A DNA stretch of 64,000 bases, taken from Polyangiales bacterium. GTDB taxonomy: Bacteria; Myxococcota_A; Polyangia; Polyangiales; Ga0077539. The notes below the pieces were generated by a model. That model had not been told where the DNA came from and did not search any database. It was given only the letters and a program-made list of their open reading frames with translations. The stretch spans positions 1,053-65,052 of the forward strand of contig JAWKRC010000040.1 in assembly GCA_041389825.1 (NCBI GenBank), in the 5' to 3' direction. Made by a program: the position numbers and the translations under genes. How positions within the stretch are numbered: position 1 is the first letter of the stretch; every line of letters begins with the position of its first letter. Of this stretch, positions 32,102-35,185 are shown one piece after another.

Positions 32102-33562
32102 TCAGGGAGAGGCCAGCTCTATTGATAGAGGAGCGTGGCGGCTTCGAGTTGCGTCAAAAAGAAAATTGAGCGTGAACTTGGGTTGAGAATGCCCTCTTGA
32201 TCTCTCATCCCTGGATATCGAGGCATGGAAGCGAATCTCGGCGGCGCTGACGAAATCCTCTGTGGGGATGCTCAGCATCTCTTGGATCGTCCTGCTCAAC
32301 TCGACCCTGCCGTGCAGCACGACGAGCCACCGAAGAGAGCGCGAGAAGGGGAGGAGTACATCCAGAATCCTGAGGAATGTGGTTCGAGTATCCGCCGTTT
32401 GGAGGCGATCGAAGCCACCGAGTATCAAGCAATTGGCTCTGAACTGACGAAGCACGCCGAGCATATCGGACAATAGTCGTTCGGGTGAGTTTAGGTCGGT
32501 CGATGTGTAAATAGTGAATGAATGATCGGTCGCGTGGATGTGGGATTGAAGGGCGTTCGAGGGGAGGTCTTGGCCATGAACCTCGAATCGAACTTCAAGA
32601 TACTTGGACGCCTCGGCGAGCAATTGACGAGCGCATTGGAACGCGCCATCTGCGTTTCGTGAGATCGCAGCGGCGAGTATGCCGGCGGGGCCAGGCCAAT
32701 CACCGAGTGCCTCAATTTCACTCCGCCATTGAGGCCCTTTGACATCGGGAGGAACACCGAACCAGCGGCGGCGCGCTTCGTCCGTCGGGAGCATCCGCGA
32801 CCACGCCTCGATGCGCGGGTCGAGCGCGACGGCCCCGCTCTCGTAGCGCAGCGGGTGGGGCCCCGAGTCTGACATCGCGAAGCGGTGCTTGGTCACCCAG
32901 AGCGCTCGGTCGTGCCTGAAATCGGGCCGCGTCGGAGTGCGCGTCGCGAGCTCCAGCACCGTGTCGGCCGCGAAGCTCCACGGTGACGGCCCTGGTTGCG
33001 AGGTCTCCTCCAACAGCACGACGAAGATCCCGCGCGCCGCCGCGAGCTTGCACACGGCGTCGGCGTCGAAGCGGTCGAAGTGGCTCCCTACGCCATACCC
33101 GTCGGAGAGCGAGTCGATCACGAGCACCCTGGGCGAGAGCCGCATCGCCTGAGCGCGATCCAGCATCGCTTCGAGCTGACGGATGAACTCCGGGTGATCG
33201 CCCTCGCCGAAGGGGACCGCGGCCATCTCGACATAGCCCGCGGGGTGCCGCACGGAACCTTCGGGCGCGCGCGCCGCGAAGTGCAGTTGAACGTCCTTGG
33301 TCTTCGTGAAGGACGAGAGCTGCGCTTCCAGCTCGGTCGGGAGGAGCTCCAGGCAACACCAGACGATGTCCAGCCCTCCGGGAATCGCCAGCGCCGCCGC
33401 GAGGTGCGCCCCGAGGATGGTCTTGCCCGAACCCGGTCCTCCGCGGACGAGCAGGACGCCGCTGTGAACGTTGTCTCCCAGGCGACGAAGTCCTCGAAGC
33501 CCGCCGTCGAGCACGAGGTCGAGGCCGGCGATCCCCGTCGAGAGAGTCTCGGTGTTCGCCAC
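32102..33562 (-). CDS. KaiC/RecA-like P-loop ATPase with a second, degenerate, low-GC half (cassette gene C)
   Basis: GTG start is 1 nt after the stop of 33564..34319. Opening GIAGLDLVLDGGL...LLVRGGPGSGKT (Walker A) and RVLVIDSLSDG (Walker B-like). The C-terminal ~220 aa lacks a P-loop but keeps a NCLILGGFDRL strand. The DNA at 32102 to ~32760 is strikingly AT-richer. Confidence 0.7.
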   Translation of the reverse strand: MANTETLSTGIAGLDLVLDGGLRGLRRLGDNVHSGVLLVRGGPGSGKTILGAHLAAALAIPGGLDIVWCCLELLPTELEAQLSSFTKTKDVQLHFAARAPEGSVRHPAGYVEMAAVPFGEGDHPEFIRQLEAMLDRAQAMRLSPRVLVIDSLSDGYGVGSHFDRFDADAVCKLAAARGIFVVLLEETSQPGPSPWSFAADTVLELATRTPTRPDFRHDRALWVTKHRFAMSDSGPHPLRYESGAVALDPRIEAWSRMLPTDEARRRWFGVPPDVKGPQWRSEIEALGDWPGPAGILAAAISRNADGAFQCARQLLAEASKYLEVRFEVHGQDLPSNALQSHIHATDHSFTIYTSTDLNSPERLLSDMLGVLRQFRANCLILGGFDRLQTADTRTTFLRILDVLLPFSRSLRWLVVLHGRVELSRTIQEMLSIPTEDFVSAAEIRFHASISRDERSRGHSQPKFTLNFLFDATRSRHAPLSIELASP

Positions 33563-33563
33563 G

Positions 33564-34319
33564 TCAGGCCGCCCGCTTCGGACCGAAGTAGTCGTGGACG
33601 CTCTCCCTCACCTCGACAGATCTCGAACGCGCTGGAGTCCCGTTCCTCGCGCGCACCTCGTCCACGTCGCGAGCGAAGTCGTCGCGCTCCAGGCCGGTGA
33701 CCGCGCAGCCCGCGTTCCAGGCGCCTTCGATCTTCGCGCCTTGCGCCTTCGATCGCTCGCGGAGGATGACCCTCAACACAGCCGCCTCGTTCGCCTCCAT
33801 CGAAGGGTCTGGCGCGAGGTCCAGCGCCCACGAGACCAACGTCTCTCCGCGCTCTCTCTCCGCGAGCGAGAGCGCTCGACGAGCACCGTTCTGTACGATC
33901 GCACCGAGGTCATCGATCAGCGCCCTCGCCGCGCGCATACGGAGGTTACGCAGCGCGCCCCGCGACTCGTAGAGCACCCGAACCCCGCTCCCGAGCGTCA
34001 ACCTCGGGTCCGGCAGACCGAGGACGGTGGCCCGCAGCTCGGACCACAGCGTCTCGGAGAAGAAGGCCAGCACCTTCCCGTGCTCAGCGGGCAGAGCCAC
34101 GTCGAGCGCGAGGAAGAGCCCGCCGTCGACGTGCTCCTCCCACTCTGCGGCGCTGATCTCGGCGCTCGCAGACAGCGCGCGCGACTCGGGGTCGGCGACG
34201 TAGAGACGCCCATCGGTGGCCTCGACGATCGGCCGCCCGACGACGAACGCGCGCCGATTACGGAGGGCGTCCGCCGACGCGATGACTCGATGCTCCGACC
34301 CGCTCATGGCTCGACCCAT
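33564..34319 (-). CDS. Hypothetical protein (251 aa), cassette gene B
   Basis: Intact ORF. It overlaps the upstream ORF by 16 nt and abuts the ATPase gene. No motif recognised. Codon usage has more A/T-ending codons than its neighbours. Confidence 0.55.
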   Translation of the reverse strand: MGRAMSGSEHRVIASADALRNRRAFVVGRPIVEATDGRLYVADPESRALSASAEISAAEWEEHVDGGLFLALDVALPAEHGKVLAFFSETLWSELRATVLGLPDPRLTLGSGVRVLYESRGALRNLRMRAARALIDDLGAIVQNGARRALSLAERERGETLVSWALDLAPDPSMEANEAAVLRVILRERSKAQGAKIEGAWNAGCAVTGLERDDFARDVDEVRARNGTPARSRSVEVRESVHDYFGPKRAA

Positions 34320-35185
34320 CGTCTCACGAACTCGTCGCTCGCCCGAACGACACGCGCGCCGTCCTGAAAGTCATCTCCGAGCTTCAGCTCTGCCGCGCGT
34401 GTTCGCAAGCGCAGGAAGAACCGACAGCTCCCTCCGTCTGCGAGGCGCTCGTCCGCGCGCCGCCGCAGGTCGTCGGTCATGCCCCACGCGAGCAGTCGAT
34501 CCTCGTCGAGCGCGCGGTGGAGGTCCACGTCTCCGGCGACGCGCACCTCCAGGGTCCACGCTCGCCAGTCGGTGACCTTCGGGTTCGTGAACACGCCGTA
34601 GGGGTCGGGGTGGTGTGGCCGTCCGTCGTCACCCTCGTGGAAATACGAGGAGAAGCCGCCGCGAGCGACGTCGCCGAAGTACCCCGCGATGAAGCACCCC
34701 GCGGGCGCTCGCCACACGCCCCTCCAGGTGGTCTCGACGTAGTAGCGCCGCTGGCTCGCCTCGTCGCAGTGGGCGATCGGCGCGAGGCAGCCGTCGTGGA
34801 CCTCTCCGTCGTCGACGCTCGCGCCACGCTCGCAGAGCAACGAGCCCAGGCCCCCGGGTGAAGCCTCCGCGCCGTCGACGTCGGCGAGCACGAACACACA
34901 GGTCCCGTAGGCCGGGTGCCCTCGGCCCGCGTGGAGGTAGAGCGCGTCCGTCGCGCCGAGCCTCTCCTCGATCGCTCGTGAACGCGGGCTCTTGTGCGTC
35001 GCGCGGAGCACACCGACGTCGAGCAGGTCGTCGAACTCCGTCTGGTACCGCGCTCCACTCGCAGGGACGCCCACACGCACCAGGGGGAGACGCACCGCGA
35101 AGGTCTGCGCCTCGGCGAGCCGTGCGCGATACCACTCGGGCGCGTCTCCGAGGCCCCCGAGGTACCCCGTCTCCGACGGCTCCAT
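34304..35185 (-). CDS. Hypothetical protein (293 aa), cassette gene A
   Basis: Intact ORF starting 3 nt after the glgC stop. No motif recognised (features noted: LYLHAGRGHPAYGTCVFVLADVDG, several Cys/His). Confidence 0.55.
   Translation of the reverse strand: MEPSETGYLGGLGDAPEWYRARLAEAQTFAVRLPLVRVGVPASGARYQTEFDDLLDVGVLRATHKSPRSRAIEERLGATDALYLHAGRGHPAYGTCVFVLADVDGAEASPGGLGSLLCERGASVDDGEVHDGCLAPIAHCDEASQRRYYVETTWRGVWRAPAGCFIAGYFGDVARGGFSSYFHEGDDGRPHHPDPYGVFTNPKVTDWRAWTLEVRVAGDVDLHRALDEDRLLAWGMTDDLRRRADERLADGGSCRFFLRLRTRAAELKLGDDFQDGARVVRASDEFVRRWVEP

Follow-up and report, generated by a model that had tools for sequence, protein, structure and literature searches.

A rare three-gene cassette of a Polyangiales bacterium encoding a KaiC-like ATPase and a probably ADP-ribosyltransferase-like protein: a possible conflict module

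SopF is an ADP-ribosyltransferase (ART) that ARF GTPases activate, and its I-Y-E triad is like that of diphtheria-toxin-type enzymes (PMC10333799); its core domain is DUF3626 (PMC6682159). Among the protein-modifying domains of phage polyvalent proteins, the commonest are ART domains, which have H, Y and D/E on strands 1, 2 and 5 (PMC5512222), and one described three-gene system consists of an ART toxin, a disordered antitoxin and a SecB chaperone (PMC7159879). A role as signal-transduction hubs has been proposed for KaiC-like ATPases (Makarova et al. 2017, as cited in PMC6393860). A locus that resembles each of these in part lies at positions 32102-35185 of a 64,000-nucleotide stretch of contig JAWKRC010000040.1 from a Polyangiales bacterium (the whole stretch is called the window hereafter). 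It consists of three genes, A, B and C. We read A-B-C as a rare, patchy accessory operon that encodes a nucleoside triphosphatase (NTPase)-gated, ART-like effector module for conflict, a reading to which we give about an even chance. Most likely the cassette is an undescribed variant of a known theme, that of the NTPase-controlled conflict or regulatory module.

34304-35185, minus strand: gene A, 293 amino acids (aa), ATG start; conserved hallmark of the cassette, unnamed family
33564-34307, minus strand: gene B, 247 aa from Met5; the longest open reading frame (ORF), of 251 aa, reaches 34319
32102-33562, minus strand: gene C, 486 aa, GTG start; KaiC-like two-domain ATPase of the RecA superfamily

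C passed Pfam PF06745 (KaiC) with 32.2 bits (gathering cut-off 26.6) over residues 8-241, and its family numbers about 20 proteins, 453-493 aa in length (alignment A1). A first-pass annotation of this DNA had read a RecA/KaiC-type Walker A and Walker B in C, and both were confirmed, as GGPGSGKT and RVLVIDSLSD. The features of the protein are as follows.

32813-33562, minus strand: N-terminal domain (residues 1-250), predicted active ATPase
33419-33442, minus strand: Walker A GGPGSGKT (residues 41-48)
33320-33358, minus strand: CxE..E, acidic residues E72 and E77 after strand 2
33101-33130, minus strand: Walker B RVLVIDSLSD (residues 145-154)
33005-33016, minus strand: LLEE, with E185 and E186
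32879-32893, minus strand: K225-x-R227, a motif of the N-domain
32105-32695, minus strand: C-terminal domain (residues ~290-486), a P-loop-less RecA-like pseudo-ATPase

The invariant columns of the C family are G44, G46, K47, E72, E77, D150, E185, E186, K225, R227 and H236. We take the acidic and K-x-R residues to be equivalent to the catalytic Glu and the trans-acting K/R residues of KaiC, and the conserved elements of the N-domain are presumably those of an active ring-forming ATPase, as in KaiC and RadA. Foldseek was run on the predicted structures of A and C, and returned SopF and OspC3 weakly for A and KaiC for C. The AlphaFold2 (AF2) model of C, built on A1 with a predicted local distance difference test (pLDDT) of 75 and a predicted template-modelling score (pTM) of 0.77, matched full-length two-domain KaiC over ~500 aligned columns (E ~1e-23, template-modelling score (TM) ~0.6).

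The two halves of C differ. Exactly one [AG]xxxxGK[ST] per protein was found in 20 of 20 members of the C family, at residues ~37-48, and none in the second half; the single Walker A in every member therefore makes the second domain a pseudo-ATPase. That this half is a P-loop-less copy of the same fold, as had been suspected from the letters of the sequence, is thus supported both by the missing P-loop and by the alignment of the model to two-domain KaiC. The C-terminal domain, of G+C 0.56-0.60, has a modelled alternation of strands and helices and falls within the KaiC structural alignment. Mean pairwise identity in the family was 24% for the C-domain versus 46% for the N-domain, and for the C of the window 15% versus 41%; on these alignments the rate of evolution of the second domain is about double that of the first. 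We propose that it is a sensor or docking domain.

Thus C resembles the KaiC/RadA/GvpD family (PF06745) in that i) it scores above the family cut-off, ii) its model superposes on two-domain KaiC, and iii) its N-domain keeps Walker A, Walker B, the acidic residues after strand 2 and K-x-R. On the other hand, it is unlike KaiC in that i) the second domain is without a P-loop in every family member, ii) identity to KaiC is ~14%, and iii) its partners are an ART-like protein and a putative adaptor. With the P-loop of the second domain lost, the clock's autokinase cycle in CII is impossible. At 15-24% identity within the family, this domain diverges too far for the CII phosphorylation sites (S431/T432) to be placed on it reliably. 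Moreover, A, B and the upstream partners of the relatives of C gave no Pfam match at all, and no KaiB or KaiA domain was recorded in any called neighbour. A KaiABC clock, considered as a candidate, was ruled out by the single Walker A and the absence of KaiB and KaiA: the cassette is not a clock.

For gene A, a word-indexed homology search, in which 8000 candidates were scored, returned only the query itself, and the same search with B returned only B. The view of A and B as orphans was overturned by an exhaustive HMMER search of 1.8 billion proteins, in which A and B were joined as one query sequence: it brought to light ~55 relatives of A, which measure roughly 280-300 aa and reach 49% identity to it (E down to 5e-66). 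The word-indexed search missed them probably because shared words were swamped in a high-GC, Ala/Arg/Gly-rich protein, and the lesson for method is that such a search can call a protein an orphan that has relatives at 49% identity. Also homologous to A (hhalign probability 98.7%, E 1.5e-16, 177 columns) are the first proteins of a distinct class of gene pairs, here called type 2 (~300-327 aa + ~300 aa), which stand ahead of the C-like gene in loci L006, L007, L009, L043, L044, L045, L070 and L071.

The first-pass annotation had recognised no motif in A or B. This holds for the databases, as A matched no family of Pfam (E <= 1), NCBIfam, PADLOC or PHROGs and B matched none in the same four, so that neither protein falls into a characterised family. 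It does not hold for the family of A, whose alignment (A2, also used for the AF2 model of A) carries the clear conserved motifs LPLVRV, LYFHAGRxHPxYG, EATPFGLGGL, CxxPVAH, WR..YLAxYFG, GRPxxxDP and DWRAWTxEVR. Three of these regions bear on the function proposed for A.

34904-34942, minus strand: LYLHAGRGHPAYG (residues 82-94), an aromatic-x-[H/Y]-x-G that ends strand 81-86, then Y93-G94
34838-34867, minus strand: EA[S/T]PxGLGxL (residues 107-116), with modelled strand 106-110
34538-34570, minus strand: DWRAWTLEVRV (residues 206-216), with E213 within modelled strand 212-217

In the first region, nearly all sequences share G87 and G94, whereas position 85 alternates between H and Y and position 83 between Y and F. 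In the second, conservation of S/T109, P110 and G114 extends from the A family to the first proteins of type-2 pairs. In the third, E213 is present in 42 of 42 sequences, R208, W210, T211 and R215 are near-invariant, and a motif of this type links A to the type-2 first proteins. On the model, LYLHAGRGHPAYG is a candidate NAD-site "strand 1/2" element, an assignment by which it may correspond to ART motifs, and E213 is a candidate catalytic glutamate. The putative triad residues, [Y/F]83-x-[H/Y]85-x-G87, then Y93-G94 or S/T109, then E213, occur in the right order on predicted strands.

The AF2 model of A has a pLDDT of 92.6 and a pTM of 0.92. Against the PDB, the top Foldseek match was SopF with NAD and ARF1 (7dn9_A; probability 0.97, E 6e-3, TM 0.38), followed by SopF with ARF1 (7dn8_A; probability 0.93) and OspC3 with calmodulin (7wr3_B; probability 0.21), the remainder being noise. 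Matches to viral models, all weak (probability 0.5-0.9), were to giant-virus orphans, large Bacillus-phage proteins and one "DUF3626 domain-containing protein"; TM was 0.30-0.36 for the Bacillus-phage and DUF3626-protein matches (probability 0.6-0.9). The PDB and viral matches are mutually consistent, weakly so at TM < 0.5, and the large Bacillus-phage proteins would belong to the ART-rich class only if they are polyvalent proteins. By profile, the A family found no ART among PDB sequences, and chance-level matches only. The fold of A is thus probably "ART-like", which we hold as unproven because TM is below 0.5 and Pfam gives no ART or DUF3626 match.

Structurally, A has its best matches, and the only meaningful ones, in SopF of Salmonella and OspC3 of Shigella. 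They are themselves NAD-using enzymes with a diverged triad (I-Y-E in SopF, PMC10333799), and both depend on a bound protein cofactor, which is an ARF GTPase for SopF and calmodulin for OspC3 (the latter from the structure of the OspC3 complex); A, for its part, is always encoded with a P-loop NTPase. Unlike them, A has no sequence match to DUF3626 and reaches a TM of 0.38 only, and whereas they are secreted effectors, A is cytoplasmic and belongs to bacteria of a free-living, soil type.

B represents a real and fast-evolving family. Its relative P0065, the product of the second gene of L072, has 245 aa and matches B from end to end at 33% identity (E 7e-9 in the library, 6e-15 pairwise); P0073 is a further member, and the second genes of L073, L074 and L077 join via P0065. 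Identities within the family are only 19-30%, and therefore B evolves much faster than A. In its N-terminal half, B resembles the second proteins of type-2 pairs (hhalign probability 66%, E 5.5e-5) and is probably homologous to them over this stretch. Against PDB sequences B gave chance-level matches only. We propose that B is an adaptor or inhibitor partner of A.

The products of the second gene tend to end in [E/K/R]-A-A in all cassette types (last three codons, 33564-33575 in the window; seen in the window, L001, L003, L008, L038, L044, L048 and L069-L073). A degron or docking peptide was considered for this tail and rejected: the codons make up a GGAGG/AAGG Shine-Dalgarno-like element with a GC-rich spacer, and the element lies 4-10 nucleotides (nt) ahead of the overlapping start of the third gene. 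The tail is best explained as a translational-coupling signal, not as a protein function.

The three genes are found together in other loci too, in an unchanged order and among unrelated neighbours, a point that the first-pass annotation had suggested checking. The order A-like, B-like, KaiC-like was found in the window and in at least ten other loci, namely L072, L073, L006, L007, L009, L043, L044, L045, L070 and L071, with a variant in L076. In the order-conserving loci the junctions are start/stop overlaps or 1-6 nt apart. Among the relatives of C as a whole, in each locus with upstream DNA and gene calls at hand, the C-like gene comes third and last in a set of three coupled genes. True A-B-C trios are those of L072 (302 + 245 + 461 aa) and L073 (298 + 245 + 472 aa), both with a KaiC-like third protein. 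Between the window and L072, identity was 49% for A, 47% for the N-half of C and 33% for B, and the C-terminal halves of C were not alignable by BLAST. L076 encodes A, a B-like protein of 396 aa and a double KaiC-like protein of 1208 aa. In L074 and L077, A (38-46% identical to that of the window) and B are followed by a ParA/CbiA-type NTPase of 600-854 aa with tetratricopeptide repeats (TPR), whose ParA-type ATPase domain matches the PADLOC candidate component PDC-M28B (E ~5e-25). Across these loci, the A-B pair is a stable core that is always followed by a P-loop NTPase, and the NTPase is exchangeable (KaiC-like or ParA/TPR).

The cassette is like STAND (signal transduction ATPases with numerous domains)/Avs-type and PDC-M28 systems, which combine an effector with an NTPase whose sensor region is variable, and the likeness to PDC-M28 extends to the match of PDC-M28B by the ParA/TPR partners of close A-B pairs. 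Unlike the STAND/Avs-type systems, the NTPase of the cassette is of the RecA/KaiC class, and effector and NTPase are separate proteins joined by a third. The cassette belongs neither to these NTPase-gated systems nor to the tripartite ART toxin-antitoxin-chaperone systems.

Partner pairs of another kind were found before other KaiC-like genes. These type-1 pairs (~180 aa + ~135 aa) are 50-60% identical among themselves, and no similarity to Pfam or PADLOC was detected for them. Type-1 proteins as shortened forms of A and B were rejected, as there was no profile similarity (hhalign probability < 1%). They lie at the following positions.

L001, 7019-8004: type-1 pair
L003, 6998-8001: type-1 pair
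L008, 4506-5944: type-1 pair
L069, 5043-6004: type-1 pair
L042: type-1 pair

A few loci have still other genes upstream of the C-like gene. The Polyangiales metagenome-assembled genome (MAG) STL-MYX9 has two C-family genes with different upstream partners, a type-1 pair in L008 and an unclassified 182-aa gene in L005. In L009 of a Byssovorax MAG (4098-5147 and 5938-7460) and in the metagenomic L044 (1-1140), the A-like gene is spread across two or three frames, and the C-like gene of L009 is frame-split as well; pseudogenisation of the cassette or indel errors of assembly are possible.

The cassette is rare, with about 60 A-family representatives among the 1.8 billion proteins. Every named genome with a C-like gene belongs to the Myxococcota (the Polyangiales MAG, Byssovorax, Archangium and Myxococcaceae MAGs), and besides the named MAGs the carriers are metagenomes. 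A-family genes are also found on contigs of 47-59% G+C. The flanks vary by locus (mfd/SurA, AlaDH/aconitase, radical SAM, acetyltransferase, glgC). In the window, they are the following.

35189-36448, minus strand: glgC, glucose-1-phosphate adenylyltransferase, upstream flank outside the cassette; Pfam NTP_transferase 5.9e-61 plus hexapeptide/LbH_GLGC
31295-32065, minus strand: HEAT/SEC-C-motif protein, downstream flank outside the cassette; Pfam SEC-C 1.1e-10

Direct reading of the junctions confirmed three minus-strand ORFs with essentially no intergenic DNA, and the translationally coupled cassette is genuine. The stop TAG of glgC (35191-35189) is followed after a 3-nt gap by the ATG of A, the TGA of B after a 1-nt gap by the GTG of C, and the TGA of C after a 36-nt gap by the ATG of the SEC-C gene. 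The first two gaps agree with those first reported, but the 16-nt overlap of A and B reported with them applies to the longest ORF of B only: from Met5, the ATG of B overlaps the TGA of A by 4 nt (ATGA). B most likely occupies 33564-34307 and starts at Met5, because of this ATGA overlap, the 247-aa recorded product (P0002) and the 4-nt overlaps in relatives. No promoter-like and no convincing terminator-like site was found between the genes; terminator-like sites were not above the chance number, promoter-like sites were not found at all, and an Rfam scan of the window gave no match. Because the gap is just 3 nt, glgC and the cassette are probably co-transcribed.

The 3-nt gap and the shared strand could also mean that A, B and C are accessories of glgC in glycogen or carbon metabolism, or else decaying, non-functional ORFs, for the 3' half of C is compositionally aberrant and a nearby S-methyltransferase/MTHFR gene has two frameshifts. 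Chance long ORFs are frequent at the G+C of the window (72.4%), and therefore the coding signal was tested: the G+C of third codon positions (GC3) exceeds that of first positions (GC1), which exceeds that of second positions (GC2), in A, B and C alike. Given this coding pattern and full-length homologues elsewhere, A, B and C are judged to be real genes. All three ORFs are intact, the models of A and C are confident, and glgC stands beside the cassette in 0 of more than 20 other loci, the SEC-C gene being likewise absent beside it elsewhere. The cassette is not linked to glycogen metabolism, and we regard an accessory of glgC or a decaying locus, taken together, as very improbable.

The composition of the cassette differs from that of its host. 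GC3 was 0.854 for A, 0.845 for B and 0.743 for C, versus 0.986 for glgC and 0.914 for the SEC-C gene, which bears out the impression that third positions of A and B are richer in A/T than those of the flanks. The deviation indeed grows toward the 3' end of C, where GC3 falls from 0.86 over the first 250 codons to 0.62 over the rest, and a local G+C minimum of 0.56 lies at 32000-32599. In high-GC hosts, GC3 of the cassette is consistently 0.1-0.25 below that of host genes, as seen in the window, L001, L003, L005, L007, L008, L072, L073 and L077. Thus the foreign-looking composition first taken as a signature of defence is real in that it is atypical for the host, but a defence role is not demonstrated by it, and PADLOC is empty for A and B.

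Some neighbourhoods hold genes of conflict type: DUF1156, DUF499 and HEPN_Swt1 on the contig of P0018; PIN, PemK, PhdYeFM and RelB toxin-antitoxin (TA) genes in L075 (1-2501); fvmX5 and fvmX3-analog domains in L003 (3559-4484); and a Uma2 neighbour in another cassette locus. As to defence genes beside the trio, which the first-pass annotation had proposed to look for, TA- or restriction-modification (RM)-type genes are present in only a minority of neighbourhoods, and most neighbourhoods are housekeeping.

Three sets of evidence are the reasons for which we favour a role in conflict: i) the order and coupling of the genes are conserved, the NTPase and the partner pair are exchanged, and B and the second domain of C evolve fast; ii) the distribution is patchy, GC3 is below that of the host, and TA-, RM- or HEPN-type neighbours occur in some loci; iii) A has its particular fold, and the structural relatives of A need a cofactor. 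Nothing that the first-pass annotation had named as testable counter-evidence to its proposal was found.

For the oligomeric state of C, the use of NAD+ by A, the role of B, the trigger, the target and the defence outcome, we infer the following scheme. C would form a ring like KaiC/RecA-family proteins, in which the N-terminal domains would hydrolyse ATP and the degenerate, hypervariable C-terminal domains would serve as input or docking surface. B would bind A, and either keep it inactive or tether it to C. A trigger would then shift the nucleotide state or the conformation of C, upon which A would be released or activated; given the shuffling of modules and the foreign-looking composition, the trigger would most plausibly be an invading element. 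A, with E213 as its catalytic residue, would use NAD+ on a target of the cell or of the invader, or simply consume NAD+, and growth of the infected cell would stop. Such logic would parallel that of the structural relatives of A, as SopF needs an ARF GTPase and OspC3 calmodulin. More tentatively, and with distinctly less confidence than in a role in conflict as such, the A family may be a free-living, chromosomal branch of the SopF/OspC type that is gated by an NTPase via B and forms a new immune or abortive class in myxobacterial MAGs, the cofactor dependence of the pathogen effectors descending from such modules.

The same arrangement of a toxin-like gene, a fast-evolving small partner and a third gene, all translationally coupled, would also suit a TA-like addiction pair of A and B, with the NTPase as an accessory stabiliser and with selfish persistence, not immunity, as the outcome. 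The ART toxin with its disordered antitoxin and SecB chaperone (PMC7159879) is a precedent, A and B stay constant while the third gene changes, and L075 lies in a cluster of TA genes. The likeness to that system is in the three coupled genes and in the succession of effector, neutraliser and threshold-setting third regulatory protein (PMC7159879); unlike it, the third gene of the cassette encodes a KaiC-like or ParA/TPR NTPase and not SecB, B has ~250 aa and appears folded, and no family is shared, so the resemblance is one of logic only. With ~250 aa, B would moreover be a large antitoxin, and it contains no Pfam domain for DNA binding; plasmid carriage was not found, and the third gene encodes an ATPase of 460-1200 aa, in some cases with TPR arrays, which is sensor-like and not chaperone-like. 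We consider an addiction pair improbable, and it overlaps with the conflict module favoured here in that TA-like logic is compatible with abortive defence.

A second alternative, which we rate as possible and clearly above the addiction pair, though below a role in conflict, is an endogenous signalling or regulatory module, with C as a hub, A reversibly modifying a host protein (in development, stress or carbon storage) and B as adaptor. The KaiC-like hubs proposed in archaea lie in small operons with variable, mostly uncharacterised partner genes, like the cassette; unlike them, the cassette is bacterial (its named genomes being Myxococcota), the second domain of C is degenerate and the partner is ART-like. 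Signalling is favoured by the proposal that KaiC-like ATPases are signal-transduction hubs (as cited in PMC6393860), by the fact that the named trio-carrying genomes are all Myxococcota, signalling-rich social bacteria, by the Ser/Thr kinases and histidine kinases near L077 and L070, by the probable co-transcription with glgC in the window, and by the absence of defence-database matches and of phage or plasmid carriage. It is disfavoured by the patchiness and rarity of the cassette, its unrelated neighbourhoods and its GC3 below that of the host in many genomes, as well as by the swapped NTPases, the diverging B and C-domain of C, and the fragmentation of A-like genes in L009 and L044, which are typical of conflict genes.

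Several lines of evidence weigh against the conflict module preferred here: i) the ART assignment of A is weak (TM 0.38, E 6e-3), and at E <= 0.1 Pfam ART or DUF3626 was matched by 0 of 36 A-family members and not by A; ii) H85, at the first position of the triad, is not fully invariant, and the type-2 branch lacks R88; iii) the cassette is bracketed by neither direct nor inverted repeats and no tRNA lies in the window, so that there are no flanking scars proving insertion, and the claim that the cassette was "inserted" behind glgC stays unproven; iv) no relatives of A or C were found on viral contigs, and none of A on phages or plasmids, and B too is absent from the phage, plasmid and viral collections; v) the PADLOC check (PADLOC-DB v2) did not support a defence role, as A and B of the window had no match and C had P-loop-level matches only, with E of at least 0.018 (IetA, GajB); vi) most cassette neighbourhoods are housekeeping and not defence islands; and vii) the hub role proposed for KaiC-like ATPases in archaea and the wealth of lineage-specific signalling in myxobacteria make a role outside conflict plausible. 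Among the relatives, those of C gave weak PADLOC matches only (mad8, E 3.6e-4), and the A-like and B-like ones none. In the literature, we came upon no paper in which KaiC-like ATPases are connected either to anti-phage defence or to proteins of the ART fold.

If a conflict module is what the locus encodes, it would represent a new effector-adaptor-NTPase architecture, in which a KaiC-family ATPase with a pseudo-ATPase domain acts as the switch, an undescribed use of the clock fold. It would also give a testable function to two unnamed families (A and B), and a non-pathogen context for the atypical ART fold of SopF/OspC and its cofactor dependence. If it is a signalling module instead, NTPase-controlled ADP-ribosylation in myxobacteria would still be informative; to our knowledge, ADP-ribosylation in myxobacterial development is poorly understood.

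Two further observations were made elsewhere in the window. Next to the SEC-C gene, a homocysteine S-methyltransferase/MTHFR gene (29344-31222, minus strand) is split across three frames. Positions 1-159 of Pfam S-methyl_trans fall in one ORF and positions 191-282 together with MTHFR in another; the breaks lie near 30712 and 30655, and the stretch in the third frame is IIATVSFDTFGAMADGTPP. As both shifts occur at C-runs, they may be homopolymer assembly errors or mark a genuine pseudogene. On the plus strand, at 39800-40700, AT skew is strongly positive (up to 0.41) where an ORF encodes a Lys/Ala/Glu-rich N-terminal region; by eye, the C-terminal part of this ORF resembles a sigma-70-family factor.

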